Source: Dehalococcoidales bacterium (lineage in GTDB: Bacteria; Chloroflexota; Dehalococcoidia; Dehalococcoidales; RBG-16-60-22). Taken from it: a DNA stretch of 56,316 nt. Positions 4,864 to 38,590 of the stretch are shown here, piece by piece. The position numbers and the translations under genes are program-made. Numbering within the stretch: the first letter of the stretch is position 1; every line of letters begins with the position of its first letter. The DNA lies in NCBI GenBank assembly GCA_016926705.1, contig JAFGOC010000036.1:1-56316 (forward strand), in the 5' to 3' direction. Under the pieces are notes generated by a model. It did not search any database. It was not told where the DNA came from and saw only the letters and a list, made by a program, of their open reading frames with translations.

Positions 4864-4974
4864 TAACCCATCTTTTACATTTCCTAATTTGCATCTCTAT
4901 TCCAAAAGTGATTAAATAATTATTGAGACCATCCCGATATATCGCGTTATTCTATCAATTCAAAGGAGCATCCC

Positions 4975-21719: not shown

Positions 21720-24233
21720 CTAGTCCTTTTTCATCCTGCGGAACAGGGGTGACGGCCACCAGTTCCAGCGTCCCAGCAGGGTCGCCAGCGACGGCACCAG
21801 AAGGGCGCGCACCAGGAAAGTATCGATCAGAACGCCGATAGCAATCGCCACGCCTATCTGGAGCACCATGGGGAAGGTGGAGCTTGCCAGGGTGGCGAAG
21901 GTGCCGGCCAGAATAATGCCGCAGGAAGTGATGACATTGCCGGTATTGGCCACGGCGTGGTGCACCGCTTCTTTAATAGACTTGTTTTCCGATTCTTCAC
22001 GGATACGCGATACGAGGAATATATTGTAGTCCGCGCCCACTGCCGCCAGCATGACGAAGACGAACACCGGCAGCATGTTAATCAGGCTTTCGAACTTCAA
22101 TATGTCTATGAAAATCCAGGTTATAATGCCGAGCGTGGCGCCATAATTCAGCAATACCGTGATAACCATATACAACGAGGCTAAAAGACTGCGCAGCAGG
22201 ATAACGATAACGGCCAGGATGCCGATAGAGGTAACGACGATGACAATAGTCAGGTCGTCGTTGCTGGTACTTACCATATCCGCATAGAGGGCTGTCTCCC
22301 CGCCGACATAATGCTCGATTTCACCGAGGCTGGAGGTGGCTACGGTAGAAGTCACGGCTTCACGGATTCTCGGCAGGGCGAGCGAGGCTTCATTTGAGTA
22401 GGGGTCGATATCCAGTATCAGGTACATCCTGGCGACCGTGCCGTCGGCGGAGAAGTAGACCGCCTTAAGCCGGTCGACAAACGGGCCGCTGCCTTCCATG
22501 CGGAACTCATTACCCAGGGCGGTCAGGGCGTCACCGAGGTCGTAAAGCGAGGTCTGAAGCTGTGAAATAAGGCCGGGCAGTTCCGAAGGCGATGCCGTAA
22601 CAAGCTGTTCTGCCAGCGACGACACCTGCGCAAGTATAGCCGACGACGAGATAAAATTAGGGCTTTGCGCAACGCTCGGGTACTCCAGCGTCAGGGCTTC
22701 CAGCTGGTCGGCCTGGGACTGCAACATGGACAGGCTGCTTAAGCTGAAACCGGGCGAAGTTATCATATCTCCAAGACCCTTGACCTGTTGCCCGAGACCG
22801 ATGAGCTGGTTACCGACCAGGGAAGGATAGTCCACTCTTGACAGGTCTTCGGCTCTGGTCAACTCCTGCGCCATCTGGTCGATGCCCTCAAGCGAGTCCG
22901 GAGTAAGCAGGCTGCCGCTTTCCGACTGTAATACCAGCGTCAATGGTGATAGCTCGCCCACCGGGAAGTGGTCCCTGATGATATTCAGCCCTTGGCTGGA
23001 TTCCTCGCTGGGAGAAAGCTGGGTCAATACATTGGCGGACAGTGTGAGTCCCGGTATGGCGAAGTAGGGTATAATCAGCACGATAATTATCGGCACGGCC
23101 GTCAGCACCGGGTGGCGGGAAATCCATTCGCCGGTCTTGGCCCAGCCCCAACGCCTCTTTTTAAGTTTCTCATTATCTTTCGGCTTGTTCTTGGTCGGCC
23201 AGAAGAGGAAGCGCCCGAAGATAGACATCAGGGCAGGCACGAGAGTAAGTCCGGCGGCCAGGGTAACGGCAATACCGATGGCGAGGGCGTAGCCGCTGGT
23301 CTTGGTCATACCGAAGCTTGACACGCTCAAGCACAGGAAGGCGATGATTACCGTAACAGCGCTGGCCAGGATAACGGGCCCGATTTGTCTCATCGTGAAA
23401 TCGATTCCCCGGGTGTTCTCGGCGCGTGCCGTTTCTTCCCGGTAACGGGAGATGATAAACAGACAGTAATCGGTACCCACGCCGAAGATGGTGACCACCA
23501 TGTAAGCGTCGATTACCGTTGAAACGTCCAGTCCGGCCTGGGCGAGAAAACCGATAATGCCGCGCGCCACCAGGAAACTGATACCGATGGCTATCAGAGG
23601 CACCAGGGCGGCAAACGGGGAGCGGTAGACTATGAGAAGAAGGACAATGACCAGGATAATCGTTACCAGTGTAGTATTGTCAATAGTGCGCTGAACGGAT
23701 TCAAAAAGGTCGTGGATGAAGCCCACGTTGCCGGTGAAATAGAAAGATGTCTCCGGGTAAAGGTCGAATTGCTGGCGGATTGTTTTAATCGCCTGCTTTG
23801 CTTCTTCATCCAGCGCCGAGGAGGAAAACGCCACGGACATCATCATGGTGGTGTCGTCCTTGCTGACGAGGGACGCGCGCAGGGCTTCGCTATCGAATAT
23901 CGAGGTAACGCGGGTGACCGGCCCGGGGCCGTTATCGGAAATGAGCCAGTTGCGCAGTTTCAAGGCCTCGTCCATGTCCTGCTGGTTGAGGCCCTGTTCG
24001 TTGTAAACGACGATCAGGCCGCTGCTTTCCTGCACACCCGAGCCGAATTTTTCATTCAGGAGGTTGCGGGCATAGACGGACTCGGTCTTTTCCGGGAGAA
24101 ACTGGCTCTGGTCGGTAACACCGACCTCCGATAGAGGAGGCGCTTGAAATACGAGAAAGATAGTAATAACCAGCCAACACGCGAGGATGTAGAACCTGTA
24201 TTTGTGGGCAAAGCTACCCAGCGCGGAAAACAT
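21720..24233 (-). CDS. MMPL/RND-superfamily membrane transporter
   Basis: 837 aa with two blocks of about 6 TM helices, each preceded by a large extracytoplasmic loop. Motifs such as GVGTDYCLFIISRYREE and AVGADYNIFLVSRIREE are typical of MMPL proteins. Confidence 0.85.
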   Translation of the reverse strand: MFSALGSFAHKYRFYILACWLVITIFLVFQAPPLSEVGVTDQSQFLPEKTESVYARNLLNEKFGSGVQESSGLIVVYNEQGLNQQDMDEALKLRNWLISDNGPGPVTRVTSIFDSEALRASLVSKDDTTMMMSVAFSSSALDEEAKQAIKTIRQQFDLYPETSFYFTGNVGFIHDLFESVQRTIDNTTLVTIILVIVLLLIVYRSPFAALVPLIAIGISFLVARGIIGFLAQAGLDVSTVIDAYMVVTIFGVGTDYCLFIISRYREETARAENTRGIDFTMRQIGPVILASAVTVIIAFLCLSVSSFGMTKTSGYALAIGIAVTLAAGLTLVPALMSIFGRFLFWPTKNKPKDNEKLKKRRWGWAKTGEWISRHPVLTAVPIIIVLIIPYFAIPGLTLSANVLTQLSPSEESSQGLNIIRDHFPVGELSPLTLVLQSESGSLLTPDSLEGIDQMAQELTRAEDLSRVDYPSLVGNQLIGLGQQVKGLGDMITSPGFSLSSLSMLQSQADQLEALTLEYPSVAQSPNFISSSAILAQVSSLAEQLVTASPSELPGLISQLQTSLYDLGDALTALGNEFRMEGSGPFVDRLKAVYFSADGTVARMYLILDIDPYSNEASLALPRIREAVTSTVATSSLGEIEHYVGGETALYADMVSTSNDDLTIVIVVTSIGILAVIVILLRSLLASLYMVITVLLNYGATLGIITWIFIDILKFESLINMLPVFVFVMLAAVGADYNIFLVSRIREESENKSIKEAVHHAVANTGNVITSCGIILAGTFATLASSTFPMVLQIGVAIAIGVLIDTFLVRALLVPSLATLLGRWNWWPSPLFRRMKKD

Positions 24234-24404: not shown

Positions 24405-25736
24405 TTACTTTTTAGAGGCTCGTTTTTTGCTCCTGGGCGCCGGCTTGAACTCCGGTTTATCTTTCACTCCGGCAAGTTTTAGAGTACGGTTGGCTATCGC
24501 CGTTGCCTGGTTGACGATGCTGGTCCATTTTTCACCGGCTTCACTCTCTGCATTGACTATAATATCCCTGGCTTTTTGTTTTGCCTCACGGATGATTTCT
24601 CCAGCTTTTTCCCGGCTTTCTTTAATTAATTGGGCGGACTCCGCAGCAGTTTTGGCATCGGCTTTTAACTTGGCCGTTAGAGATTCGGCATCTTTTTTTG
24701 CTTTGGCGATAATTTTAACGGCCTTGCTGCGGGCATCGGCAAGAACCCTGGCGGCGTCTTCCTCGGCATCGGCTCTGGCGCGGTCGGCAATTTCAGCGGC
24801 GGCTCGCTTTGCTTTAACAGTAATTTGCGCCGCTTTTTTACGCGCCTCGGCGGAAAAGCCGGCTGTATCACCGTCTGCCTGTTTTTTCGTTCTAGCGGAA
24901 ATTTCAGCAGCTGCCTCTTCGGCTTCGTGTATAATTTGCTCGGCTTCTTTGCGGGCATCGGATGTTATAGCAGACGCGTCGGTCGCTGCCTCGGCCTTCA
25001 TTTCACGGGCGACTTCCGCTGCTTTCTTGCGGGCTTCGGTGATGATTTTGCCTGCTTCCGCTTCCGTATCTTTAGTTAAATTGTCTTTAGCAGTCAGCTG
25101 TCGGTTGGCTGCCAGGGCATCATGGATTATTTCCTCTGATTTCCGGCGCGCTTCGCTGACAAGTTTGTCCGCCTCCACCTTCGCCTTGGCGTAAATATCG
25201 TCCTGGGCCATCATCTCCCTGGCGGTGAGTTCCGCCACGTCGATTATCTGGTCGGCTTTCTCGCGGGCTTCCGCGATGATACCGGACGCGGTGGCCTCGG
25301 CTTCGGTCTTGATTTGATGCAGTATGTGGGCTGCCTGTTGTTCCGCGTTCTTGATGATTTGCTCGGCTTTCCCCTTGGTTTCGTCGATGAGCTTGGCGGT
25401 TTTTGTCTCCGCTTCATTCTGGCCTTTGGCTTCTATATCCCTGGCTACCTGTTCCGCGCGGGAGATTATTTGAGAGGCTCTTTGCTTGGCATCGTTGAAA
25501 ACCAGCGTCGACGGCTCGGTGCGCTCCTCCGGTTTCTCCTTAGGCGATGTTTCTTTCATCCGCTGCGGGAAACGATCGATGGAGGGGAATTGGGGACGAT
25601 TCGCCCCGGATTTTTCAAGTTCCTTTTTCCCCTTTTTTTCAAAAGGGCGGTTCATTGTCAAAGGCTGGTGGCACCAGCGGCAGACTGTGCCGAAAGCTTC
25701 CTGGCCGCAGTTTGGGCACTTAGGACGTGTTCTCAT
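24405..25736 (-). CDS. Zinc-ribbon protein with nine ~37-aa alpha-helical repeats
   Basis: N-terminal CPNCG-x8-CRWC zinc ribbon, then a basic/Pro-rich linker. The motif A[KR]x[KE][AS]xxII recurs at approximately aa 83, 121, 157, 196, 235, 261, 298, 335 and 374. The C-terminus is basic. The 255-aa antisense ORF is Ala/Ser-rich shadow. Confidence 0.75.
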   Translation of the reverse strand: MRTRPKCPNCGQEAFGTVCRWCHQPLTMNRPFEKKGKKELEKSGANRPQFPSIDRFPQRMKETSPKEKPEERTEPSTLVFNDAKQRASQIISRAEQVARDIEAKGQNEAETKTAKLIDETKGKAEQIIKNAEQQAAHILHQIKTEAEATASGIIAEAREKADQIIDVAELTAREMMAQDDIYAKAKVEADKLVSEARRKSEEIIHDALAANRQLTAKDNLTKDTEAEAGKIITEARKKAAEVAREMKAEAATDASAITSDARKEAEQIIHEAEEAAAEISARTKKQADGDTAGFSAEARKKAAQITVKAKRAAAEIADRARADAEEDAARVLADARSKAVKIIAKAKKDAESLTAKLKADAKTAAESAQLIKESREKAGEIIREAKQKARDIIVNAESEAGEKWTSIVNQATAIANRTLKLAGVKDKPEFKPAPRSKKRASKK

Positions 25737-26207
25737 ACAAATTACCTCTTATAAAAAAACAACGATAGCACGCTCTGGAGATTCATCGGTTCTTGCCCGT
25801 ACAAAACACATAAGATACCCGGTTAGCATGATTATAACATATCGAGGCAACCAACTTAAGCCTCCATTTTGAAAAATTGCATCAAAATTTTTCAGCTTGA
25901 TTTTAACCTGAAAATACTCAAAAGAACCTCAAGTTTTCACAGGCGTAAATTGATAGCCAGAACCCAGATAACATTGGTGTTTCCCCTAGTGGAAAATCAG
26001 GGGAATCTTACTATCGACTTACTGTTCAAGCAAGTAATATCAGAGGTATAAACCTTTATCACACCATATCAAGCTAACAATAAGGATGTTAATAAGTTGA
26101 CCTCCGAAGCTAACCGATTTTACGAGGCCCATATCACACCCTCGTGTTGTCAAAGAATTTCACCTTCCATTTAATATAAGGAAAGTCTTAAGAAAAGGAG
26201 GGAAAAT

Positions 26208-26582
26208 ATGAAAGGCTTTGCGAAAAAGAGCAGCAGAGGTGAAAAAGGTTTTACCCTGGTCGAGCTACTCATCGTGTTTACCTTGCTGGGTATCCTGGCC
26301 GCAATCATGATTCCTAACGTGTCGGGATTAATCGGCTATGGTCAGACACAAGGCGCCGGAGCGGAACTCTCCATCATACAGACAGCAATGGATACTATGA
26401 TGGCTAAAGAGAATCTGGATGGTGTGGACGCAGTGGACGCTGCAGCTGCTACAAGCAACATGTCCAATTTCACAGCAGCCCACCCGCTTTATCCTAATTA
26501 CGTGCGGTTTGAATCAGCCACGGGTAACTACACCTGTGACGATACCGGCCTGGTTGTACAAACTCTAACCGGCTACGAATAG
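26208..26582 (+). CDS. Type IV pilin (prepilin with class III signal peptide)
   Basis: MKGFAKKSSRGEKG|FTLVELLIVFTLLGILAAIMIPN has the canonical G/FTLxE cleavage-methylation site with Glu+5. Strong RBS aaggaggg. The mature protein is about 110 aa. Confidence 0.85.
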   Translation: MKGFAKKSSRGEKGFTLVELLIVFTLLGILAAIMIPNVSGLIGYGQTQGAGAELSIIQTAMDTMMAKENLDGVDAVDAAAATSNMSNFTAAHPLYPNYVRFESATGNYTCDDTGLVVQTLTGYE

Positions 26583-26662
26583 AGTAGCGGCGTATAAGTT
26601 AGTAATTAGTAACTTGTAAGCAGAACAACTGCAAAGCAAAACCGGGTATTAGTGAGTGTTTT

Positions 26663-28927
26663 ATGCCGATGAACACAACAACTGCAAAAAGCGGTATAAA
26701 TAGTGGCGATAAGCTGGAGACAACGGCTGCGCTGAACACTAAGACCGGTGAGGAGACCCAAGAGGCAGCCTCTTTGAATAGCGACTCCAAAGAGTTGCTG
26801 TTGAGAGCGCAACAAAGCGCTCTTGAAGCTAAAGAGGCTGCCTTGGGTGCCATTAACCGGTTTTATAAGGAAAGCAAAGCTTCGGAAACCAGAGCCTCGA
26901 AAATGCTGAATGAGCTGGAAGATGCGCTTCAGCTGGCTCTTCAGGCCACGAGAAAGTCTCGAGGCTCTAAAAACAACAGCCAGGGCACCGGCGAGTCCGC
27001 CGCAGTACCGCATGACGAAACGAATTTAAAAGAACCTAGTAAAATCTTTCATGCCAATCCATTCGGCATTGTCACGGATTTAAAGAGGTCCCTTTTAAAG
27101 ACTAAACCTACCGATGCCGAAGTCAAAGAAGAATTCTACCGGCTGGTAATGCGCAAGAGCCCCCAACTGCGCCAGCTTATTAATGATTTAACCGAAGATA
27201 AAGCTAAAGCCAGAATTGATGAAGTCATTTCAGAAGCTAAATCTGAAATAGCGGCGGCCCGCGCGGCGGTAATTAAGGTCCAGCAAGAGGTCAATACCAC
27301 CAGGGAAGAAGCTAAAAAGACCTACCTTGATGCCGAGAACGCCCGCAAAGCTGCTGAATTACTGGTTAGCCAGGTAAAGCAGGAAACAATTACCAAGGCT
27401 GCCGATGAGATTGTAAGAGCCCGCGAAGAAGTGAAAGCAGCTAGAGAGGCTGCCGGCATGGCCGTTCAGCGGGCTGAAGATGAAATCAGGAAAAACTGCG
27501 AAGAAGCGGCTACCGTAGATAAAAATGCCCAGGTGACTGTTGCCTTAGCCAATGAGAAATTAAAAAAGTATGCCGAGGAACTGAAGGCCTATAAAATTCA
27601 GGCGCACATTGCGGTGAAGCAGGCCAGGGATGAGGCGAATAAAGCCAGGGCGGAGGCTGAAGTAGCCCGCCGCGCAGTCCAGGAAGCGGTTGAAAAAGCA
27701 GCTCTGGAAAGCCAGCAGGCCAAAGCAAATATTGAGACCGCGCAAAAAATGATGCAGGAAGCCACGATTATAGCGGAAAAGCATGCTTATGACGAGTTCC
27801 TTGAAGAAGTCCAGAATATGCGGCAGGAAATCAACGCTATTAGTGCCAAAGCGCGTGAAGCTATAAACAAAGCACAGCGCGAAAGCCGCGAGGCCAAAGA
27901 AGAGTTGGCTATGGTAAAAAAGACCAGCGAAGAAGCGGTAAGTACGGCGCGCCAGGAAGCTCTTGAAGCCCGCGAAGAGGCTGAAAAAGCCAAAAAGTCG
28001 ATGATTGATACTAAAAATCGAACTAAAGAAGAAACCCGTAAAATGCGGCAGCAAGCAGAAACCAGCGTGATAAGGGCCAGCGAAACTATAACGCAGGCTA
28101 AGAAAGATATTATAAATATTACCCGTGATGACATCATCAGGGCGAGGCAGGAACTCGAGGTGCCTTTTAAAGCGACCAAATCTGATGATAAGCAGGCATC
28201 CGAGAAGCTGGATGCCGAATACGTGGCTGCTGTATTACATGAAATGCGCAGCCCGTTGCACTCGATTTCAGGGTTTACCAAATTACTGAAAGAAGATGGT
28301 GTTACCGATGAGGCCACGCGGCAGGAATTCCTCTCCATCATGGAGCAGCAGAGTGAAAGCCTGAACAAATTAATCGATAACCTGTCAGATATTTTAAACA
28401 ATAAAACCGAAGGACTGACCGTCAATGCCGTAGCGGTTTCTCCGTACGTCATGATTACCGAGGCTATAGACGGTGTAAAATCGATGGCGCAGAAGAGGAA
28501 TAATCTGATAGGCCATGACCTTACCCCCGAACTCCCGGAGGTAAAAGCCGATGCATTTCGTATCAAGCAGGTAATTACCAACCTGCTGACCAATGCTATC
28601 AGATACAGCCCTGAAAACCGTCCTATATTCGTTAAGGCCCAACCGCAGGATAATGAACTGCTGGTGCAGGTGGTTGATTATGGCATCGGCGTTCCTAAAG
28701 GGGAACTGAAGTCTATTTTCAACAAGGGGCACCAGGCCAGCAACCGCGGCGACGTGGAGGGCAATGGGCTGGGACTTTATATTTGCCGTCAGATAGTTAA
28801 AGCGCACGGTGGGAAAATCTGGGCGGAAAGTGTGGAAGGAGAAGGCAGCACGTTCAGTTTTACTCTGCCGATTAATGCCGTGGAACAACTGGAAAGTAAA
28901 ATCGTAGAGAAAAGCTATGTCGGGTAA
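26663..28927 (+). CDS. Soluble histidine kinase with ~500-aa coiled-coil N-terminal region
   Basis: No hydrophobic segment. A long helical region is rich in AR[ED]EA motifs. H-box AAVLHEMRSPLHSISGF. HATPase_c motifs NLLTNAIRYS, DYGIGVP and GNGLGLYICRQIVKAHGGKIWAES. It overlaps the next gene by 11 nt. Confidence 0.85.
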   Translation: MPMNTTTAKSGINSGDKLETTAALNTKTGEETQEAASLNSDSKELLLRAQQSALEAKEAALGAINRFYKESKASETRASKMLNELEDALQLALQATRKSRGSKNNSQGTGESAAVPHDETNLKEPSKIFHANPFGIVTDLKRSLLKTKPTDAEVKEEFYRLVMRKSPQLRQLINDLTEDKAKARIDEVISEAKSEIAAARAAVIKVQQEVNTTREEAKKTYLDAENARKAAELLVSQVKQETITKAADEIVRAREEVKAAREAAGMAVQRAEDEIRKNCEEAATVDKNAQVTVALANEKLKKYAEELKAYKIQAHIAVKQARDEANKARAEAEVARRAVQEAVEKAALESQQAKANIETAQKMMQEATIIAEKHAYDEFLEEVQNMRQEINAISAKAREAINKAQRESREAKEELAMVKKTSEEAVSTARQEALEAREEAEKAKKSMIDTKNRTKEETRKMRQQAETSVIRASETITQAKKDIINITRDDIIRARQELEVPFKATKSDDKQASEKLDAEYVAAVLHEMRSPLHSISGFTKLLKEDGVTDEATRQEFLSIMEQQSESLNKLIDNLSDILNNKTEGLTVNAVAVSPYVMITEAIDGVKSMAQKRNNLIGHDLTPELPEVKADAFRIKQVITNLLTNAIRYSPENRPIFVKAQPQDNELLVQVVDYGIGVPKGELKSIFNKGHQASNRGDVEGNGLGLYICRQIVKAHGGKIWAESVEGEGSTFSFTLPINAVEQLESKIVEKSYVG

Positions 28928-30104
28928 AGTATTAGTAATTGAAGACGACCCGACCTCTTTGAGGTTGATAGAGTACGCTCTTAAGCAGCGTGGCTACCAG
29001 GTCATGACTACTCTTAACGGGCTGGAAGGCATTATTACCGCCCAGAAAGAGGAGCCGGACCTTATTATCCTGGATATCATGCTGCCGGGGATTGACGGCT
29101 TCGAGGTATGCCGCCGGCTGCATTCCGGTTCGCAAACGACGAAGATACCTATTCTGATTATATCTGCCAAGACGCAAAAAGAAGATATCAACGCCGGCTT
29201 CAAGGCTGGCGCTGATGATTACCTGCTGAAACCGGCCTCCCCGACCGAAATTATTAATCGTGTGGAGAGCCTGCTTTCTAAGAAAATAACCGGCCAGGCT
29301 CGGGTGGTATCTTTTGTCAATACCAGTGAGATTCCCGGCTTGACTATGGTCATGGTGAATGTCGCGGCGGCGCTCGTAGAACAGGAAAAGCGGGTTACGC
29401 TCATCGATGCTTCAAACAGTTACAAAGGACAACCCGGTAAGAACAAAGTATCCTCTGAACAGGACGGCCGGGTCATTCTGGAGGTGGATACTAATGGTAA
29501 CGGCGGACAGGAGCCGGGACTGGAAACACTGCCTTCCGGCATAAGAGTCCTGCACGTGGACGATGTGTTTGACGATAACAATGGTGCATCAGAAGTCAGC
29601 CTCGACCTGGTGCAGAAAATCGGCAAGTCCAACGATTACCTGCTGGTTGATCTGCCCCTTAAGCCCAGTCACTTTACCACCTCGATACTTAAGAGCAGCG
29701 ACCTCGTGATGATATTAAGCGATTACCGCATCGATAACCTCATTACCACCAGGAACGCCGTTACACTGCTTAATTTCCTCGGCATTACGGCGGAAAAAAT
29801 GGCCGTCGTGCTGGCGGACTCGGAGGGCAAGAACCAGAACCTGACGACCGCCAATATGAAGCCCTTTGTGGAAGCCAACCTGGGGATTATGCTGGTGGAG
29901 GTCGTTTCTTTCGATGCCAAGATGTACCAGCTGTTCTACCTGGACAGCCAGCCTGTAATACAGTCTAATCCGAACCAGAAACTGGCCCAGGACTTAAAGC
30001 GTATCGCCCGTTACGTCGCTACTTATAGCTATACGGGGCAGGAACCCAAGCAGTCAAAAAAAGCGACTCCTCCCGCGGAGGTAAAAATTGACGCTGACAA
30101 ATAA
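28917..30104 (+). CDS. Response regulator: canonical receiver domain fused to a ParA/MinD/TadZ-like domain with a degenerate Walker A
   Basis: REC domain: VLVIEDD, DLIILDIMLPGIDG (acceptor Asp), ILIISAKT, DDYLLKP. C-terminal domain: RVVSFVNTSEIPGLTMVMVNVAAALVEQEKRVTLIDAS aligns by eye to xIAVxSxKGGVGKTTxAVNLAAAL, with both P-loop lysines replaced. A LLVDLP Walker-B-like strand is retained. Confidence 0.8.
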   Translation: MSGKVLVIEDDPTSLRLIEYALKQRGYQVMTTLNGLEGIITAQKEEPDLIILDIMLPGIDGFEVCRRLHSGSQTTKIPILIISAKTQKEDINAGFKAGADDYLLKPASPTEIINRVESLLSKKITGQARVVSFVNTSEIPGLTMVMVNVAAALVEQEKRVTLIDASNSYKGQPGKNKVSSEQDGRVILEVDTNGNGGQEPGLETLPSGIRVLHVDDVFDDNNGASEVSLDLVQKIGKSNDYLLVDLPLKPSHFTTSILKSSDLVMILSDYRIDNLITTRNAVTLLNFLGITAEKMAVVLADSEGKNQNLTTANMKPFVEANLGIMLVEVVSFDAKMYQLFYLDSQPVIQSNPNQKLAQDLKRIARYVATYSYTGQEPKQSKKATPPAEVKIDADK

Positions 30105-31776
30105 CAGGCCGAAAGGCACGCTGGGAGAATCGCTGGTCCAGAGGCAGATAATCACTGCAGAACAGCTTGAGCAAGCCCAGGAAAAACAGAAGGAGCAGGG
30201 CGGCAAGCTTAGTGAAATCCTGGTCAATATGGGTTTCGTTAAAGTTGAAGAGCTGGCATCATTCCTTAGCATCATGTGGAATGTGCCTCTAATCGACCTG
30301 AAGACACATGTGGTGCAGCCGGAAGCCCTGGCATTGATACCGGAAGAACTGGCCAGGAAGCATCTTTTTATTCCTTTACAAATCATCGGCGATTCGCTGA
30401 TGGTGGTGATGGCTGACCCCGATGACTATATTACCATCGGGGATATTTTTGCCAGGACCAATATGAAGGTGCAGGTGGCGTTTGCCAGCGCTGCGGACAT
30501 CCGGCGCGCTATAAATATTTACTACCGCGCTACCGATGAAATTCAGGAGAAGGTTAGCGAGTCCCTTCCGATAGACATCGGCGACCGGGGGTCCGCCGTT
30601 GATTTCAGTGTTGAAACACCCATCACGGAAAGCCTGGACCTGCTTATTGAACAGGCTATCAGAGACCGGGCGTCCGATATTCACCTTGAACCCCAGAACG
30701 ACCGCCTGCGTATCCGTTACCGTATCGATGGCGTACTGTATGATATGAACTCCGTGCCCATCAGTGTGCACACGGAACTGGCTTCCAGGATAAAAATACT
30801 GGCGGAAATGGACGTTACCCGCTCGAAGCAGGCACAAGACGGGCAGTTTTCTATAAAAATAGGCGATAAAAGCATCGATATCCGCGTCGCCAGCGCCGAT
30901 ACCATCCACGGCGAGCGGATTACCCTGCGTCTGCTGGATAAATCGGTATCGCTTTTTACGCTGCCGGAGTTGGGTTTTTTGCCGGATACTCTAAAAAAAT
31001 ACCGGGCGCTTTTGCACTATCCCTTTGGTATGGTTTTAGTAGGGGGCCCGACCGGTTCCGGTAAAACGACCACGCTTTATACATCGATAAATGAAATCGA
31101 CCGTAAAAGATATAACATTATGACCATCGAAGACCCGGTGGAATACCAGTTCGAGAACATCACCCAGAGTCAGGTAGACCCTAAAACCGGGATTACTTTC
31201 GCCAGCGGACTGCGGGCATCGCTGCGGCAGGACCCGGATGTCATCCTCGTGGGAGAAATCCGCGATAAAGAGACCGCCATTACCGCCGTTCAGGCCGCTC
31301 TTACCGGGCATCTGGTATTTTCGTCAATCCATGCCAATGATGCCGTCAGCATGATTACGCGCCTTCTTGACCTCGGGGTTGAGCCGGGGCTGATATCCTC
31401 AACGCTTATCGCTTTATTGGCGCAGCGCATGGTACGCCGCATCTGTACCAATTGCCGCGTTGCTGCTCCGCCCAATGCCGTGCAGCAGGAGATATACCGC
31501 AAGGAAATGGGGCAGGAATTAACTTCCGTATACAAAGGCACCGGTTGCCACCTTTGCGGCCAGACCGGCTACATGGGCAGAATCGGTATCTTTGAAATGC
31601 TCGTCATGAGTGAAGAAATACAGAAAATGCTGATTAGCGATGTCAGCATAGGGACATTAAGGGAAGAGGCGATTCGTGAAGGCATCTATACCATGAAGCA
31701 TGACGGGCTGTTGAAAGTAAAAGAAGGAATCACCACTTTCGAAGAAGTGATGAACAGCGTATTTACGATTGGGTAA
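30088..31776 (+). CDS. pilB: Type IV pilus assembly ATPase (GspE/PilB family)
   Basis: N-terminal T2SSE_N/MshEN-like helices, Walker A GGPTGSGKTTTLY, Asp/His boxes (VGEIRD, LTGHLVFSSIHAN), and a tetracysteine motif CTNC...CHLC. TTG start overlaps the upstream gene by 17 nt. Confidence 0.92.
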   Translation: MTLTNNRPKGTLGESLVQRQIITAEQLEQAQEKQKEQGGKLSEILVNMGFVKVEELASFLSIMWNVPLIDLKTHVVQPEALALIPEELARKHLFIPLQIIGDSLMVVMADPDDYITIGDIFARTNMKVQVAFASAADIRRAINIYYRATDEIQEKVSESLPIDIGDRGSAVDFSVETPITESLDLLIEQAIRDRASDIHLEPQNDRLRIRYRIDGVLYDMNSVPISVHTELASRIKILAEMDVTRSKQAQDGQFSIKIGDKSIDIRVASADTIHGERITLRLLDKSVSLFTLPELGFLPDTLKKYRALLHYPFGMVLVGGPTGSGKTTTLYTSINEIDRKRYNIMTIEDPVEYQFENITQSQVDPKTGITFASGLRASLRQDPDVILVGEIRDKETAITAVQAALTGHLVFSSIHANDAVSMITRLLDLGVEPGLISSTLIALLAQRMVRRICTNCRVAAPPNAVQQEIYRKEMGQELTSVYKGTGCHLCGQTGYMGRIGIFEMLVMSEEIQKMLISDVSIGTLREEAIREGIYTMKHDGLLKVKEGITTFEEVMNSVFTIG

Positions 31777-31806
31777 AAGGCCGTTTTTTTGTACAGGGGA
31801 ACATGA

Positions 31807-33021
31807 ATGTACCAGTATGAAGCATACACTCTTGATAAAGAGATTGTTCAGGGCACTATCGATGCTCCGAACGAAGGCGTAGCCGAGGAAAGACTCAATG
31901 GGGCCGGTTATCACCAGATATTAACTCTGAAAAAGACCTCCCCAACACTTTCCGCATCTGTCAAGAGACTGTTTCACCTCCCCTCCTCCGTAAAAAAATC
32001 AGAATTCACTGATTTTTTCTATCAACTCGCCACGCTTTTGGATTCCCGGATGCCCTTTGTGCAGGCCCTTTGGGTACTGGCCGAGCAAACCCATAATCCG
32101 GCTTTGAGGGATATTATTAGCAAGCTGGGTAGAGATGTGTCCAGTGGTATTCCTTTCTCTCTGACGCTGGGACAGTATCCTAAGCTGATATCAAGCCATT
32201 ACTGTCAGGTAATCAGGGTCAGTGAAAAATCCGGCGACCTGACGCGCGGTTTGAGACTGGTGGCCGGTTACATCGAGAAAGAGGCCTCACTAAGCGGCCA
32301 CGTTAAGCGTATGTTGTCTTATCCCTCGTTTCTGGGTTTAGCATCGCTGATTGTAATAATAATCGTGGCTACCGTAGCGGTGCCGTCTTTAACCAAGCTG
32401 TTCGATTCGCTCGGGGTTGATTTGCCCCTGGTGACGCAGATACTTGTTGCCTGCGCCGGTTTCATTACAACCTATAAGTTCCACCTTGGGGCTGGAATAC
32501 TGGCAATTATCGGTATTGTTTTCCTCATAAAAAAATCACCCGGCGCCAAGAAGTATTTAGACATGCTGGCGTTAAGTCTGCCGATTGTCAGCAATATCGT
32601 GATCATGCGTAATATCTGCCGGTTCTGCCGCAGCAGCGCTATGTTGATAGAGGCCGGTCTTACACTCCCGCAGGCACTTAATGCGATTATCGGCACGATA
32701 GACAATACCATCATAAGAAATGCGCTAAAAGAAATCCGACAGGAGACTATCAAGGGTAAAGGTCTTTGGCAGCCGATGGAGAAGTCCGGACTTTTCCCCA
32801 GGTTGCTGGTGGACGTGGTGGCTATCGGTGAAAAGAGCGGCTCTTTACAGTCCTCGTTTTCCACGATGGCGGACTATTATGAGAAAAGGCTTGACCAGAG
32901 GGTACAGAAGCTGCTTTCGATGATTGAACCGGCTTCTATTATACTCGTCGGTCTGATTATCAGTTTTATCGGTATAGCAATTATTACGCCGCTATATTCA
33001 ATATATCAGAACGTAGCCTAA
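31807..33021 (+). CDS. pilC: Type IV pilus platform protein (GspF/PilC family)
   Basis: 404 aa with two GspF-type repeats and three TM helices. The ending IITPLYSIYQ is typical of PilC/GspF. Confidence 0.9.
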   Translation: MYQYEAYTLDKEIVQGTIDAPNEGVAEERLNGAGYHQILTLKKTSPTLSASVKRLFHLPSSVKKSEFTDFFYQLATLLDSRMPFVQALWVLAEQTHNPALRDIISKLGRDVSSGIPFSLTLGQYPKLISSHYCQVIRVSEKSGDLTRGLRLVAGYIEKEASLSGHVKRMLSYPSFLGLASLIVIIIVATVAVPSLTKLFDSLGVDLPLVTQILVACAGFITTYKFHLGAGILAIIGIVFLIKKSPGAKKYLDMLALSLPIVSNIVIMRNICRFCRSSAMLIEAGLTLPQALNAIIGTIDNTIIRNALKEIRQETIKGKGLWQPMEKSGLFPRLLVDVVAIGEKSGSLQSSFSTMADYYEKRLDQRVQKLLSMIEPASIILVGLIISFIGIAIITPLYSIYQNVA

Positions 33022-33027
33022 AAAACG

Positions 33028-33435
33028 GTGTGCATAATGATAAGGATGTTAAAAAGGCTATATAAGAAAACGCAACGGCAGGGAGGCCAGAGGGGCATGA
33101 CCATGCTCGAAGGCCTGATATGCATAGGTATATTGGGCGGTGTTGTGATATTGATGGTATTCGCCATGTCCGGCGGAGCTCTGGCGGTAAATGAAAACGA
33201 GGAGGAGACGGCGGTTCAGAATCTGGCCAGAAATCAGATGGAGTATATCAAAAGCCTGGCATATAATCCTGGGGCTTCTACTTACCCTACCATAAGCACT
33301 CCGCCCGAATACAGCATTACTGTGAGTGTTACTGCGGTGCCGGATACCAACAATAACATTCAGAAGGTTACGGCGAATTTCTACCGTAATAGCACGCTCC
33401 TCATGACCGTATCAGATTATAAGGTAAACCGATGA
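33028..33435 (+). CDS. Minor pilin / pseudopilin with prepilin-type N-terminus
   Basis: ..QRG|MTMLEGLICIGILGGVVILMVF has Gly followed by Glu at +5 and a hydrophobic helix. The start is ambiguous: GTG 33028, ATG 33037 or ATG 33046. Confidence 0.65.
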   Translation: MCIMIRMLKRLYKKTQRQGGQRGMTMLEGLICIGILGGVVILMVFAMSGGALAVNENEEETAVQNLARNQMEYIKSLAYNPGASTYPTISTPPEYSITVSVTAVPDTNNNIQKVTANFYRNSTLLMTVSDYKVNR

Positions 33436-33878
33436 AAGGAGAAAGGGGATATACTCTAGTAGAAGGGCTGATAGCTATTGCCATTACCGGCTTTCTGGTG
33501 ACAGCACTTAGTATAGTGGTGCAGCAGATGGTTGTTGTGCCCGAGCGGGGTGATGACCAGATTGATGCCATTCACCCGGTGCAGAACGCAGCCCACTGGC
33601 TGACGCTTGACGGTCAGACCGCTGAATCGGCCAGCGGCGGCAGCAGCCTGATGCTGACTTTACCCAATGAGAATATCATCACCTATACGTTTTCCGGCGA
33701 TAAGCTCTTTAGACTTTACGGCAGCTCAAACCGGACGATAGCCGATAATGTCGCCAGCGCCAATTTTACCGTCCTGGACAGGGTTATTTACATGACGATT
33801 GCCACCTTGCCGGACAGTCGCTGGAATATAAGTGAAAATTATACCTACCGGGCTTATATGCGCCCGACGGAAACATAA
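33432..33878 (+). CDS. Minor pilin / pseudopilin with prepilin-type N-terminus
   Basis: MKGERG|YTLVEGLIAIAITGFLVTAL has a canonical G/xTLxE site. ATGA overlap with the upstream gene. Confidence 0.75.
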   Translation: MKGERGYTLVEGLIAIAITGFLVTALSIVVQQMVVVPERGDDQIDAIHPVQNAAHWLTLDGQTAESASGGSSLMLTLPNENIITYTFSGDKLFRLYGSSNRTIADNVASANFTVLDRVIYMTIATLPDSRWNISENYTYRAYMRPTET

Positions 33879-33881
33879 GAA

Positions 33882-35195
33882 ATGAAGATGAAGATAAACG
33901 GAGAAAAAGGCCAGGCTCTGCCACTTGCGATGATCGCCGTCATTTTGGGCGCGCTGGTGATTCCGCCCTTTGTGGGTTATGCCGGCAGCAGCATAATCGG
34001 CTCTCATGCTTACGGGGATGCTATACGCTCGCAGTATGCCGCCGACTCCGGCGCCGAGCACGCTATCTGGAGATTGACTGATGACGGCTTGATGGATATT
34101 TTAACGAGCGCCGGTAGTATGGTCAGTTATACGCTGGACGAAACTCTAAACGGCCTGACAACGAACGTAACCGTTTGTAACGCATGGCAAACTATTGCCG
34201 ATGATGACTTCAACAGTGGTGGCTGGTCGGGAGGCACAGGCTGGCTCGATGACTGGACACATTCAGGAGACAGCGCCGTAACTTCTTCCGGGAGTCCTTA
34301 TGAAGGTCCTTATCACTTGAGATTGAGGGGTGGCAGTGCGATTGCGCAACGACCCGTGGACCTTTCTCATCAGATAGATATTCATCTCCGCTTTTGGGCT
34401 AAAGTCAATTCTTTTGAAACGTGGGATACCGCTACCTGCCAGGTCAGCAGCGACGGTATAAATTGGAACACCGTCTATACTTTTACCGATGTCTTAAGTG
34501 ATGATATTTATCGTTATTATGATTTTGAGCTGTCTTCATATAAGATGACCGGCCAGTTCTGGATTTCTTTTAACTCCAATATGAGTAGCACAGGTGACTA
34601 CTTTTATGTTGATAAACTGGATATAGTATGGCTGGTGGCTAATCCCGTTACCTTTGCTACAGAAGATTTTGAAAGTGGAGGTTGGTCCGGCGGCACCGGC
34701 TGGCTTGAGGATTGGACACATACCGGTGCTTCTTCGGTTACTACCTGGAGTTCTCCTTACGAAGGCTATTATCATTTATTGCTGCAAGGTTCCAACGGTG
34801 ATGTGCAGCGCCCGGTTGACCTCTCTGCGGCCGGTATAGTCTACTTGAGATTCTGGGCTAAGGTCTCCGGTTTTGAAAGCAGGGATAATGTTGTATGCCA
34901 GGTGAGTCCCGATGGCTCAACATGGTCAACTATCTATACCTGGACGACGGCCCATGACGATAATGATTATCACTATTACGCTATCAGCCTGGCACCTTAT
35001 GAGATGACCAGCGAGTTTTGGATTCGTTTCAGTAGCAATTGTAATAATCAAAACGATTATTTCTTTGTTGATTTAATATCGCTGGTAAACCTGGATGCTT
35101 ATGGTGTAACAGCTAAAGCTGGCGATAGCATCATAAAGGCAAAGGTCTTTGTCGATTCAGGAGTTGTCACGATTATATATTGGTACTACGTTTAA
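33882..35195 (+). CDS. PilX-N-like pilus protein carrying two tandem ~145-aa beta-sandwich-like modules (putative tip adhesin)
   Basis: The N-terminus GEKGQALPLAMIAVILGALVI resembles the PilX N-terminal segment, with no Glu+5. Two internal repeats (aa ~106-249 and ~259-402, offset 153 aa) share DFxSGGWSGGTGWLxDWTH..SPYEGxYHLxL.G....QRPVDLS....LRFWAKV..FE....CQVSxDGxxWxTxYT......YY...L..YxMTxxFWIxFxSN....DYFxVD. Confidence 0.65.
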   Translation: MKMKINGEKGQALPLAMIAVILGALVIPPFVGYAGSSIIGSHAYGDAIRSQYAADSGAEHAIWRLTDDGLMDILTSAGSMVSYTLDETLNGLTTNVTVCNAWQTIADDDFNSGGWSGGTGWLDDWTHSGDSAVTSSGSPYEGPYHLRLRGGSAIAQRPVDLSHQIDIHLRFWAKVNSFETWDTATCQVSSDGINWNTVYTFTDVLSDDIYRYYDFELSSYKMTGQFWISFNSNMSSTGDYFYVDKLDIVWLVANPVTFATEDFESGGWSGGTGWLEDWTHTGASSVTTWSSPYEGYYHLLLQGSNGDVQRPVDLSAAGIVYLRFWAKVSGFESRDNVVCQVSPDGSTWSTIYTWTTAHDDNDYHYYAISLAPYEMTSEFWIRFSSNCNNQNDYFFVDLISLVNLDAYGVTAKAGDSIIKAKVFVDSGVVTIIYWYYV

Positions 35196-35230
35196 TGAAT
35201 TGAATATGAAAAAGAGAGTAAATTTGATAG

Positions 35231-35854
35231 ATGAGTTTAAGTATAGCGGAAAGAAATAAAATTAATAAAAAGTCCCGGTCTTTGACTAACTGGCTGTGGG
35301 TGATAGGGATTATTGCCATTATCGTGGTCAATATCATCATCTGGAAAAACTATCTCGGAGAAAAATCTGAAATCGAGGTTTTACAGAATGAAATAGCGCT
35401 CGTAAACCAGCAAATTGCCCAGGCGGCGCAGCCCCCAACCAATCTTGAATCTGAATTGGAAAGAGCCCAGAGTGAACTTGCGGCAGCCCTGGAGGTTTTT
35501 CCGGAGAGAATCGACAAGACCGACGTGGTTGATTTTATTATTAATACCGCAGAAGCATGCGATGTCCGGATTATACCTCTTATATGGGAAGGACAAAAGG
35601 TTAGTGATACCGGCCAATCGTACGTAGTGCTGCAATATAGCGGAACCGTCATCGGTAAATTGACCGATGCCACCAATTTTATCACCATGCTTAGAAACGG
35701 CGATTATTCTACCATTATCATCACCGAGTGTACCGTTGAAAGGACGTCTGCACTGGATAGTGATGTATCGAGTAGTGAAATCAATGTGACCATTGACCTT
35801 GTGTTTTCTCTCTATGCCATTTCCATCCTTGACAGTAAGGATAGCATTTTATGA
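35231..35854 (+). CDS. PilO/PilN-like bitopic pilus alignment protein
   Basis: Short cytoplasmic N-terminus, one TM (WLWVIGIIAIIVVNIIIW), a coiled coil (EIEVLQNEIALVNQQIAQ...ELERAQSELAAAL), then a globular domain. Stop/start overlap with the next gene. Confidence 0.55.
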   Translation: MSLSIAERNKINKKSRSLTNWLWVIGIIAIIVVNIIIWKNYLGEKSEIEVLQNEIALVNQQIAQAAQPPTNLESELERAQSELAAALEVFPERIDKTDVVDFIINTAEACDVRIIPLIWEGQKVSDTGQSYVVLQYSGTVIGKLTDATNFITMLRNGDYSTIIITECTVERTSALDSDVSSSEINVTIDLVFSLYAISILDSKDSIL

Positions 35855-37308
35855 AAATAACGACGCTAAATATAAGCTCCAACGTAATAAAGTACGTTAC
35901 CACCAACGGCAACGGTCAGGTCAAACACGGCAGCATTACGCCGGACGGCCTTATCAATAACGGCCTGATATTACAGCCTGATGCTATCGCCAGTCAGATA
36001 AAGACCATGTTTGCTGATAACGCCCTTCCCAAGAACAAAGTTATCTGCAGCATCAATGGTCTGCCGTTTTCCTATAGGCTGTTTACCCTCCCGAAGATGG
36101 AGCCGGCGGCTTTTGATGAAGCTATTATCAGGGTAATCAGGAAAGAGATGCCCATTTCTCCGGATGAAATGTACCTGCTGTGGCAGGCTTATCCCACGGA
36201 AAATAAGGAATGGCAGGTGCTGGTGGCGGGCATAACGCGCCAGCCTGTTGATAACCTGGTGAAAACATTATCGGCAGCTGGCATCAAGCCGTATTTTCTT
36301 GACCTTCAGCATCTTTCTCTGGCCAGGTTGAGCGGTGAGTCCGATGCAATAATCGTCGAATGTGAAAAAGACTACTCCAATATCGTGATGCTGGTAGAAG
36401 GAATACCGCAGGCTTTACATATCGTTCCGTCTCTGGGGGCAGAGGCTGCTGTTAAGGATGAAATCCGCCAGGTTGTCAGCAGACTCAATAAGATGGTCAA
36501 TTTCTATAACAACAATCATCCTAAAAACCCCATTAAAGAGGATTCCAAGGTCCTGCTGACCGGCGAACTGGCAAACGAGGATGGTGTGGTAGAGCTTGTA
36601 CAGAAGGAAGTAGATTATACGGTAGAGCTTTTATCACCGGCCGACAAAGTGGTTTCCGGCATGCCTTTGCATGATTTTGCCGTTAACGCCGGCTCGATAC
36701 TCATGAAGACTGCGCCGGAAAAGGAAGCCGGCAAAGACGCTACTCCTCATCGCAGTATCAATCTCGCCAGGGTTGCCAGGCAGCTGCAAAGTATTAATAT
36801 TTCCAGTATTTCCAACGCAGTAATCGTAGGTTCGATTGCCGCTTTCGCCGGCGTCGTTGCTCTGGTATTCGGATTTTTATCGCTAAATCAAGTACGGGAA
36901 GACTTAGCTCTGGCGCAGGGGCAATTGGTCAAGGCTAATGCGGAATACAGCACCATAACAAGTACGCTCGCCGCCTCCCAGGCTGTGCAGGATAATATCG
37001 ATGAAGTTAAAGCGCAGATACATTTGATAAACGCCGATTACGAATCGATATTGAATTCGACGGATCATGTAGCCGATATTGCCGCGGTCACCCAGTCCGT
37101 TCCTGACGACCTTGTGTTTACCGATTTAGAAATTACGTCCGACCAGATTTTCGTATATGGCAGAACCTACGAGCCAGCGACGGTCGTCCAGTTCGCACGG
37201 AATCTTGAACTGATCGGCGATTTTTCCAAAGCTGATATCCAGCGTATCGACTGGGCAAACAGCACCTCCGGCCCTTCACTGTCTTTTATGATCGTTATCA
37301 ATAAATAG
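35851..37308 (+). CDS. PilM (actin-like ATPase fold) fused to a PilN-like TM/coiled-coil C-terminal region
   Basis: The N-terminal ~300 aa has PilM-like organisation (ITTLNISSNVIKYV..., AGIKPYFLDLQHLSLARL). This is followed by a TM helix (VIVGSIAAFAGVVALVFGFLSL), a coiled coil and a C-terminal domain. Confidence 0.7.
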   Translation: MKITTLNISSNVIKYVTTNGNGQVKHGSITPDGLINNGLILQPDAIASQIKTMFADNALPKNKVICSINGLPFSYRLFTLPKMEPAAFDEAIIRVIRKEMPISPDEMYLLWQAYPTENKEWQVLVAGITRQPVDNLVKTLSAAGIKPYFLDLQHLSLARLSGESDAIIVECEKDYSNIVMLVEGIPQALHIVPSLGAEAAVKDEIRQVVSRLNKMVNFYNNNHPKNPIKEDSKVLLTGELANEDGVVELVQKEVDYTVELLSPADKVVSGMPLHDFAVNAGSILMKTAPEKEAGKDATPHRSINLARVARQLQSINISSISNAVIVGSIAAFAGVVALVFGFLSLNQVREDLALAQGQLVKANAEYSTITSTLAASQAVQDNIDEVKAQIHLINADYESILNSTDHVADIAAVTQSVPDDLVFTDLEITSDQIFVYGRTYEPATVVQFARNLELIGDFSKADIQRIDWANSTSGPSLSFMIVINK

Positions 37309-37475
37309 GGCCGGCATGATTATCTTCGCTTAATCTCCCCCCTTATTCACTTAAGGTGCTTTTGGTTGTATTGCGCCTGATTGTGTGGTAAAAGTGTCTC
37401 TAAGAATGTTAAGATAAACTGGTACGTTTTAGTCATATCGGTTCAATGACTTTACATCAATTAGAGGAGGGCTCG

Positions 37476-38558: not shown

Positions 38559-38590
38559 CATTACATAAAGTATTAAGTAGAGGTGTATCA

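Follow-up and report, generated by a model that had tools for sequence, protein, structure and literature searches.

The window analyzed here is a 56,316-nucleotide stretch of DNA from a Dehalococcoidales bacterium (contig JAFGOC010000036.1, positions 1 to 56,316 of the forward strand). At 28917-30104 it carries a gene for a 395-residue response regulator, in which a canonical receiver (REC) domain is followed by an output domain that is predicted to have the fold of the MinD/ParA ATPases and to be related to TadZ/CpaE. The product has a 100% identical match at NCBI, a protein encoded in the metagenome-assembled genome of a Dehalococcoidales bacterium. The gene lies in a type IV pilus cluster, between the genes for a histidine kinase and a PilB-type assembly ATPase. 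The nucleotide-binding loop (Walker A motif or P-loop) of the output domain is erased, and this loss is family-wide and under purifying selection. The layout of the gene is as follows.

28917..30104, plus strand: whole gene, 395-aa response regulator with a degenerate TadZ-like output domain of predicted MinD/ParA fold, stop codon included (open reading frame and translation; Pfam Response_reg and AAA_31)
28926..29273, plus strand: receiver (REC), residues 4-119 (Pfam E 1e-28), with the phospho-acceptor D53 at 29073-29075
29301..30026, plus strand: predicted MinD/ParA-fold (TadZ/CpaE-related) domain, residues 129-370 (AAA_31, profile against 1hyq, Foldseek, hhalign)
29319..29348, plus strand: degenerate P-loop NTSEIPGLTM, residues 135-144, in register with G-x-K-G-G-x-G-K/T-[ST]-[ST]
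29418..29516, plus strand: variable insertion in the MinD/ParA fold, residues 168-200, predicted disordered (AlphaFold2 confidence, low conservation)
29634..29657, plus strand: Walker-B-like strand DYLLVDLP, residues 240-247 (aligned to MinD Walker B)
30027..30101, plus strand: C-terminal tail, residues 371-395, predicted disordered (confidence below 50), with the motif [IV]-P-x-L-E-[KR]

Pfam Response_reg matches residues 5-117 of the receiver half (E 1e-28) and is covered from end to end (model positions 1-111 of 111). NCBIfam gives partial receiver matches only in this half, the best of which is of the OmpR/PhoB/PleD type. Receivers of this type dimerize on phosphorylation through their alpha4-beta5-alpha5 face, and this region is nearly invariant in the family. 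The AlphaFold2 (AF2) predicted local distance difference test (pLDDT) score of the receiver is 85-94, and Foldseek superposes it on many REC structures with a root-mean-square deviation of about 1 Å. The set of residues that serve phosphorylation is complete: E9/D10/D11, D53, S83 and K105, plus the aromatic switch residue Y102. The family comprises over 100 full-length homologs that are close to 390 aa in length and share 48-100% identity, and 109 sequences were aligned. E9, D11, D53, S83, Y102 and K105 are invariant in 109/109, whereas position 10 varies (D in 83 homologs, A in 23, N in 3). No other part of the protein is as constrained as the receiver, in which 58 of 115 positions are invariant and the mean pairwise identity is 81%, compared with 12/209 and 54% in the C-terminal domain (C-domain). 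Against six orthologs, the ratio of nonsynonymous to synonymous substitution rates (dN/dS) is 0.01-0.05 in the receiver and 0.09-0.20 in the C-domain.

The C-domain is joined to the receiver by a linker of about 9 residues and is predicted, by profiles and structural models, to form a seven-stranded alpha/beta fold of the MinD/ParA type (SIMIBI). Pfam AAA_31 matches residues 129-269 with 31.1 bits (gathering cut-off 27), and it is the only Pfam or NCBIfam ATPase model to reach its cut-off with the window protein; the Pfam matches to BcsQ, CbiA and ParA and the NCBIfam matches to archaeal MinD, BcsQ and ParA are all weak. The family profile matches archaeal MinD (1hyq) over the entire C-domain with an E of 1.8e-6. 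The AF2 model of the C-domain alone has a predicted template modelling score (pTM) of 0.74, and Foldseek aligns it with 1hyq, FleN, FlhG, bacterial MinD and the ParA-family protein 3ea0 (E 2e-12 to 5e-10, template modelling scores 0.6-0.74, with 0.74 for 1hyq). Receiver matches dominate the Foldseek result for the full-length model, in which TadZ 3fkq is also matched (E 1.8e-10). This full-length model was built on the 109-sequence alignment and has a mean pLDDT of 76.7, with both domains confident.

Two stretches outside the core are predicted to be disordered. The insertion at residues 168-200 has pLDDT below 50 in both the full-length and the domain-only model and is the least conserved stretch of the protein (mean top-residue frequency 0.44). 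It lies between strand 2 and the LPSG loop, and its roughly 33 residues are found family-wide with a barely conserved sequence. The tail at about 371-395 (pLDDT below 50) is hydrophilic and contains proline. E388 of its [IV]-P-x-L-E-[KR] motif is invariant in 109/109, and the motif, which may be a linear docking motif, is missing from a sister group with KGGVGT loops that is described below. A heuristic hydrophobic-moment scan detected nothing amphipathic after the last helix of the fold and hence no amphipathic membrane-targeting helix. A membrane-tethered MinD-like protein was rejected on this ground.

The sequence NTSEIPGLT aligns without gaps with the KGGxGK[ST] motifs of Soj, ParA and MinD. 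The P-loop lysines and the Gly-Gly pair are kept in 0/109 homologs. The nucleotide-binding positions are occupied in the family as follows.

Position 137, signature Lys: S, G, N, T, D or A; Lys in 0/109
Positions 138 and 139, Gly-Gly: E, D or N in 85/109; I, N, S and others
Position 140, variable: Pro in 82/109
Position 141, Gly: G in 103/109
Position 142, catalytic Lys: M, L, I, T, V or S; Lys in 0/109
Position 143, Ser/Thr Mg ligand: T or S in 86/109, Ala in 17/109
Position 166, switch I catalytic Asp: S, A, T or V; acidic in none
Position 245, Walker B Asp: D in 92/109, V, I, L or A in 16, E in 1

The window protein itself keeps D245, position 240 is D in 107/109, and the first acidic residue of switch I is retained (D or E at 164 in 108/109). 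Outside the nucleotide motifs, the best-conserved residues of the C-domain are LPSG205-208, D240, D301-x-x-G304, K315-P-x-x-E319, S331-x-D333 and E388. The base-binding strand of the sister class of REC + KGGxGT proteins is replaced in the window family by an invariant D-P-E-G. The loop and its following helix (residues 131-156) have a dN/dS of 0.05-0.12 against the three closest orthologs. An earlier note on this DNA, made from its letters alone, had described much of this architecture. The receiver motifs that it listed (IEDD, IILDIMLPG with D53, ISAKT with S83 and LLKP with K105) are all present, and NTSEIPGLT does replace KGGxGKT with the loss of both lysines and without an indel. The LLVDLP strand that it compared with Walker B aligns there. 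Its alignment of the C-terminal half with MinD, ParA and TadZ is borne out by AAA_31, the 1hyq profile match and Foldseek. It had named two outcomes that would have spoken against it, a C-domain unlike the ParA/MinD fold and orthologs with an intact KGGxGK[ST]; the Foldseek similarity (template modelling scores 0.6-0.74, E down to 2e-12) and an intact motif in 0/109 homologs are the reverse of both.

The C-domain is most likely a pseudo-ATPase that has lost the nucleotide contacts of Walker A. Nucleotide binding has probably been lost, because the loop has become acidic, branched and proline-containing, Ala occurs at the Mg ligand, the Walker B position can be hydrophobic and D-P-E-G takes the place of the base-binding strand. 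The earlier note had called ATP binding unlikely from the missing lysines. The lysines are indeed missing, but to conclude ATP blindness from them alone is unsafe because the TadZ of E. rectale reportedly lacks both and is still active as an ATPase, with a lysine of a neighboring helix in compensation (PMC10482377, citing Xu 2012).

The origin of the C-domain was followed with a C-domain-only profile searched against 1.84 billion representatives. The family proved to be narrow, as 12 representatives reached E ≤ 1e-30 and 36 reached E ≤ 1e-10. Most of the proteins that rank next have a length of 375-405 aa and a match that begins at residue ~130-145. Among the best 150 C-domain representatives, 77 have a loop of the form [KR]GGxG(non-K/R)[ST], in which the signature Lys is kept and the catalytic Lys is replaced by Thr, and 30 have the classical KGGxG[KR][ST]. 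Many of the 77 carry a fully canonical receiver. The C-domains of this sister class match NCBIfam TIGR03815 (CpaE homolog/Ssd) with 73-81 bits; the window protein itself gives no TIGR03815 match. The class has the loop G-x-K-G-G-x-G-T-[ST]-T, and its names, which come from NCBI and JGI annotation, are 'response regulator/pilus assembly protein' and 'Flp pilus assembly CpaE family ATPase'. An hhalign comparison of the window family with the REC-KGGxGT class gave a probability of 99.8% and an E of 3e-30 over 246 columns and placed NTSEIPGLTM exactly over GAKGGVGTTT. This is indirect but strong evidence that the C-domain descends from TadZ/CpaE-like domains.

Loop intermediates are found among the relatives (GCKGGVGTST, GSEGGVGTST, GPKGKAGTTT and SPKEKVGTTT). 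Within one cluster type they form a graded series from GCKGGVGTST through GSK[RG]GVGTTT, SSREGVGTTS and SPKEKVGTTT to N[ST]x[ED][IV]PG[ML]T. The sister group with GSK[RG]GVGTTT-type loops occurs in the same PilB-type cluster (related loci L090, L115-L128, L085, L086 and L088), and two loci of the wider class (L087 and L092) lack a pilus context. In L086, a stand-alone ParA/MinD-type gene (L086:3-779; Pfam ParA, BcsQ and AAA_31) stands directly upstream of a REC-TadZ-like gene (825-2006, loop GCKGGVGTST), which is followed by PilB. The two products could be partners, one an intact ATPase and the other an atypical one. L091:1-12740 holds a classical Tad locus, CpaF-TadB-TadC-TadE-TadE-TadG. After it come a HATPase gene of anti-sigma-like type, the genes of two PAS histidine kinases and a tandem pair of genes for proteins with a canonical REC and a ParA-like domain, with further hybrid kinases and an Hpt protein nearby. 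Phosphorylatable TadZ-like proteins thus also accompany true Tad systems. A contig scan with the full-length alignment, which includes generic receiver motifs, gave only unrelated response regulators among the matches listed, and tblastn with a sister-class C-domain against plasmids gave no match at 1e-8. A literature search for experimental studies of the 'response regulator/pilus assembly protein' class found none.

The gene cluster around the response regulator gene comprises the following neighbors.

26208..26582, plus strand: candidate major pilin of type IV (N-methyl class), first gene of the cluster (Pfam N_methyl); position upstream of the kinase and response regulator genes conserved
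26663..28927, plus strand: partner histidine kinase, 754 aa (Pfam HisKA with H526, and HATPase_c)
30088..31776, plus strand: PilB-type assembly ATPase with MshEN N-domain and T2SSE (Pfam T2SSE E 5e-120, MshEN E 2e-17)
31807..33021, plus strand: PilC-type platform protein with two T2SSF domains in one polypeptide (Pfam T2SSF); order conserved
33028-33435 and 33432-33878, plus strand: two minor pilins (N_methyl match for 33432-33878); order conserved
33882-35195, plus strand: 437-aa pilin-like repeat protein (two tandem repeats of ~150 aa seen in the translation); order conserved
35231-35854, plus strand: 207-aa membrane protein; order conserved
35851..37308, plus strand: PilM::PilN fusion, last gene of the cluster (Pfam PilM_2 and PilN); conserved at the cluster end

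The cluster is that of a PilB-type type IV pilus (similar to the type IVa pilus (T4aP), of a monoderm) whose pilins have class III signal peptides. The kinase stop overlaps the response regulator start by 11 nt, and the response regulator stop and the PilB start overlap by 17 nt. In total, 44 related loci were collected, 37 by a metagenome scan with family-specific C-domain motifs and 7 by protein look-ups. PilB lies immediately 3' of the response regulator gene in 40/40 of those with downstream sequence as well as in the window, and the same further downstream genes follow where the contig permits. A Tad system was ruled out by the components, namely a PilB with MshEN, a single two-domain PilC, N-methyl pilins and PilM::PilN, and this holds for 40/40 related loci. 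Pfam identified as such the neighbors named in the earlier note, with the kinase at 26663-28927, PilB at 30088-31776 and PilM::PilN at 35851-37308. A promoter and terminator scan of 25600-31900 gave counts at the level of shuffled sequence and no terminator on the plus strand from the pilin gene to pilB, which is compatible with one operon and otherwise uninformative. Neither a PilT-type retraction ATPase nor a prepilin peptidase was found in the cluster (26208-37308) or among the nearby open reading frames scanned.

The partner kinase has no transmembrane segment and no recognizable sensor domain. Its N-terminal ~510 aa form an Ala/Glu/Lys-rich coiled coil, and its H-box reads HEMRSPL. A weak Scy-like Pfam match was seen in the L002 ortholog. 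The coiled-coil kinase may act as a cytoskeletal or landmark scaffold. In 12/12 loci of the window clade with EDD or END at receiver positions 9-11, the orthologous gene is directly upstream of the response regulator gene and keeps the His and the ~500 nt of the catalytic domain. In 23/109 homologs D10 is replaced by Ala ('EAD'). All five loci of this subclade with upstream sequence carry a coiled-coil ortholog in which the His has become N, R or D, and which stops 112-142 nt before the response regulator gene and leaves no room for HATPase_c. These pseudokinase orthologs of 26663-28927 are at L004:8042-9919, L111:~3799-5514, L112:565-2409, L109:13-249 and L114:26-181. In L004 and L111 another intact histidine kinase lies ~4 kb upstream. 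The split between kinase and pseudokinase is probably one evolutionary event and not 17 independent observations.

We give an even chance to the reading that the protein is a cytoplasmic adaptor, made of a phosphorylatable receiver and a TadZ-like pseudo-ATPase, which is a fixed part of the PilB/PilC/PilM-N (non-Tad) operon of Dehalococcoidales. The adjacent soluble coiled-coil histidine kinase would phosphorylate D53, and phosphorylation would alter the alpha4-beta5-alpha5 face of the receiver, as in receivers of the OmpR/PhoB/PleD type. This change would drive the dimerization or re-orientation of the dead MinD-like domains and would stand in for the ATP-dependent dimerization of MinD, ParA and TadZ. 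The resulting assembly would dock on the PilB motor or the platform and would license, block or position pilus assembly. Such docking would parallel the CpaE/TadZ dimers that have been modelled around the CpaF motor in the Tad machine of Caulobacter. We infer the phosphotransfer, the phosphorylation-driven dimerization, PilB or the platform as the target and the sign of the regulation. The bolder claim is that Asp phosphorylation has replaced the nucleotide switch of a MinD/ParA organizer outright and drives dimerization and docking of a dead TadZ-like domain on a PilB-type motor; we advance it tentatively and regard it as somewhat doubtful. The suggestion in the earlier note of a phosphorylation-switched pseudo-ATPase that gates or places the pilus in a new way remains the best reading, but its novelty is reduced by the phosphorylatable TadZ-like proteins that are already annotated.

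Several points weigh against the adaptor. The evidence is drawn from sequence and the host organisms are uncultured, the inter-domain geometry of the full-length AF2 model is uncertain (pTM 0.58), and gene adjacency does not identify the binding partner of the response regulator. Phosphorylation by the product of the adjacent gene is not universal, as the EAD partner lacks both the catalytic domain and the His, and part of the conserved role may be structural. Loss of the lysines is no guarantee of lost nucleotide binding, as the E. rectale TadZ described in PMC10482377 reportedly illustrates; most family members keep G141, T143 and an acidic side chain at position 164, and the conserved K158, R210, R271, K315 and K335 might compensate for the lost lysines. 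The C-domain would then still be a nucleotide-binding and possibly weakly hydrolyzing atypical ATPase, like the reported E. rectale protein with its lost lysines and compensating helix lysine (PMC10482377), and would integrate an ATP switch with the phospho-switch. We consider this rather unlikely. TadZ, whose Walker A is atypical, is reported to bind ATP all the same and to have a low ATPase activity (PMC6668835), and in the window family the length of the P-loop is unchanged, the loop is under purifying selection, several ligand positions are largely kept (G141 in 103/109, T or S at 143 in 86/109, D or E at 164 in 108/109 and D245 in 92/109) and the basic residues K158, R210, R271, K315 and K335 are conserved. 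However, the glycines of KGG have become E/D/N and I/N/S, followed by Pro in 82/109, which puts acidic and bulky side chains at the phosphate site. Ala at position 143 in 17 homologs and V/I/L/A at Walker B in 16 suggest that the ligands of Mg2+ and phosphate are dispensable, the catalytic Asp position is acidic in none, the invariant D-P-E-G stands where the sister class has its base-binding strand, and AAA_31 alone of the Pfam/NCBIfam ATPase models reaches its cut-off.

The pseudokinase loci lead to another alternative, in which the protein is mainly a phosphorylation-independent scaffold. Its receiver would dock on the bundle of the coiled-coil partner that resembles a dimerization and histidine phosphotransfer (DHp) domain and would tether the motor to a coiled-coil landmark, with phosphotransfer secondary or vestigial. 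All five D10-to-Ala loci (5/5) keep the coiled coil and the DHp-like segment without the acceptor His and the catalytic domain, the kinase combines a 510-aa coiled coil with the lack of a sensor domain or transmembrane segment and has a weak Scy-like match in L002, and the REC-like domain of classical TadZ is a protein-interaction module. We nevertheless find this alternative quite unlikely. D53, S83, Y102 and K105 are invariant in 109/109 homologs including the pseudokinase subclade, which is hard to explain without phosphorylation chemistry; the kinase is intact in the window and in 12/12 clade loci, and pseudokinase loci (L004 and L111) carry another intact histidine kinase ~4 kb upstream. 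The pairing with the adjacent kinase that the earlier note proposed stands for the window and these 12 loci, but not for the D10-to-Ala subclade. A role in gene expression, as a FleN/FlhG-like anti-activator or a transcription-factor partner for the pilin genes in the position of PilS-PilR beside pilA, is improbable. In its favor, the best structural matches include FleN and FlhG, the kinase and regulator pair lies between the pilin gene and pilB as pilSR does in some bacteria, and in L002 and L004 the pilin gene has small genes of the MerR family just upstream of it. However, the protein has no DNA-binding domain, the cluster encodes neither a sigma-54 activator nor a FleQ-like partner, the window itself yielded no MerR gene, the nearest homologs are CpaE/TadZ-like pilus-assembly proteins and not FleN, and the overlap with pilB and the 40/40 adjacency point to a stoichiometric component of the machine. 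The erased P-loop and the incompletely conserved Walker B could also suggest a decaying or non-functional copy of a TadZ-like gene. This has next to no probability: more than 100 intact full-length orthologs share the loop pattern down to 48% identity, the C-domain has a dN/dS of 0.09-0.20, synteny is conserved at every locus and the AF2 fold is confident. A decayed pseudogene was accordingly rejected on the basis of conservation and dN/dS.

The adaptor that we favor resembles several known systems in part. TadZ/CpaE proteins share with the window protein an N-terminal REC fold, a C-terminal MinD/ParA fold, a similar total length, an atypical Walker A without the catalytic Lys and a gene beside a pilus ATPase gene. 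Classical TadZ has an atypical, non-phosphorylatable receiver domain (ARD), whereas the window protein has a canonical receiver and a cognate kinase gene, and no TadZ-specific N-domain model is among its Pfam matches at E up to 0.1. The window family has lost the whole KGGxG core rather than a single lysine, and the window protein lacks the C-terminal amphipathic helix of TadZ/CpaE. The cluster differs as well. The window has PilB(MshEN), PilC, PilM-N and N-methyl pilins in place of the TadA/CpaF-TadB-TadC-Flp set of Tad, in which TadA/CpaF lacks MshEN, TadB and TadC are split, the pilins are of the Flp type and PilM/N are absent. In the literature TadZ is described as Tad-specific and its receiver as atypical. 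The profile similarity of TadZ is reportedly to archaeal rather than bacterial pilus components (PMC6668835), which agrees with archaeal MinD being the best structural match here. CpaE localizes the pilus machine and has been modelled as six dimers that ring CpaF, with REC-REC contacts and ATP-dependent dimerization (PMC13170226).

The 'response regulator/pilus assembly protein' class has the same architecture, canonical receiver residues and a homologous C-domain, and some of its members are in the same PilB/PilC/pilin/PilM cluster of Dehalococcoidales, often with an upstream kinase. It keeps the signature Lys/Arg and Gly-Gly and presumably binds nucleotide. The earlier note had presented TadZ as the inverse case of the window protein; this is right for classical TadZ but not for this sister class, in which 77 of the best 150 representatives have a TadZ-type loop and many of these have a canonical receiver. 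The MinD, FlhG (FleN) and ParA proteins are the best matches to the C-domain (1hyq, 5j1j, 4rz3, 4v03 and 3ea0) and share its strand order, LPSG-type loop and Walker-B-like strand. They need KGGxGK[ST] to form ATP-sandwich dimers and a helix for the membrane or binding to DNA, whereas the window protein lacks the loop and the helix and has a fused receiver. The concept of phosphorylation-dependent, post-translational control of PilB/PilT (activity or polarity) by protein contact is shared with PATAN-REC of Synechocystis, PilG/PilH of Pseudomonas and DrdR of Xanthomonas. Their outputs are PATAN, none or a tandem REC, they are not known to have a MinD/ParA fold, and their pathways are of the chemosensory type, in contrast to the window, where the pilus operon has a kinase and a response regulator of its own. 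PilS-PilR are a kinase and a response regulator encoded beside pilin and pilB genes. PilS is a sensor in the membrane and PilR a sigma-54 AAA+ transcription activator that carries a DNA-binding domain, whereas the window has an apparently dead MinD-like output and a soluble kinase. A search of the literature on pili of Dehalococcoidia and Chloroflexi with response regulators found no description of a protein of the window type.

The architecture of REC plus a CpaE-like domain is already annotated and response regulators that act on pilus motors are known. What is new is a conserved lineage in which the P-loop is completely erased and under selection, and the fixation of TadZ-like genes in PilB-type clusters of Dehalococcoidia, together with the loop intermediates and the pseudokinase subclade. 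ParA/MinD proteins are mechanistically defined by ATP-dependent dimerization. If the bolder claim is true, the ParA/MinD positioning class would have in the window protein its first member that works without ATP, and the erased P-loop beside the pristine receiver would show a ParA/MinD scaffold under the control of another switch. The transition between switches can be tested directly on the intermediates (KGGVGT, then KEKVGT, then SEIPGL), and one subclade appears to go further, with the protein paired with a pseudokinase. It would also mean that TadZ-like modules, which were thought to be Tad-only, are integral to a non-Tad type IV pilus in Dehalococcoidia; a TadZ-type module was once a 'forbidden' gene in T4aP models. 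Dehalococcoidia are environmentally important, hard to culture and have tiny genomes. A dedicated kinase and regulator in the pilus operon implies signal-controlled piliation, which is relevant to attachment and aggregation and possibly to DNA uptake or syntrophy.

Other features of the cluster and its surroundings were noted. The 437-aa protein encoded at 33882-35195 has an N-terminal hydrophobic segment, repeats of the form DDFxSGGWSGGTGWLxDWTHxG...YFxVD and a faint galactose-binding-like match. Its conservation is limited to the first ~100 residues in several related loci, which suggests a variable tip or adhesin module. PilM::PilN is one protein of 485 aa in the window and of 489-492 aa in L001 and L002, and L090, a more distant locus, has a gene call for a separate PilM of 311 aa. 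The cluster is flanked by an MMPL transporter gene (21720-24233, minus strand) and two zinc alcohol dehydrogenase genes (37446-39676, plus strand), and a soluble PAS histidine kinase is encoded at 16226-18235 (minus strand). Just upstream of the cluster, the divergent gene at 24405-25736 (minus strand) encodes a 443-aa protein that has a zinc-ribbon-like CxxC...CxxC motif in its N-terminal part and also contains a long, repetitive coiled coil. Its matches to DivIVA, ATP-synt_B and V-ATPase_G are sub-threshold, and it is not at this position in L001 and L004.

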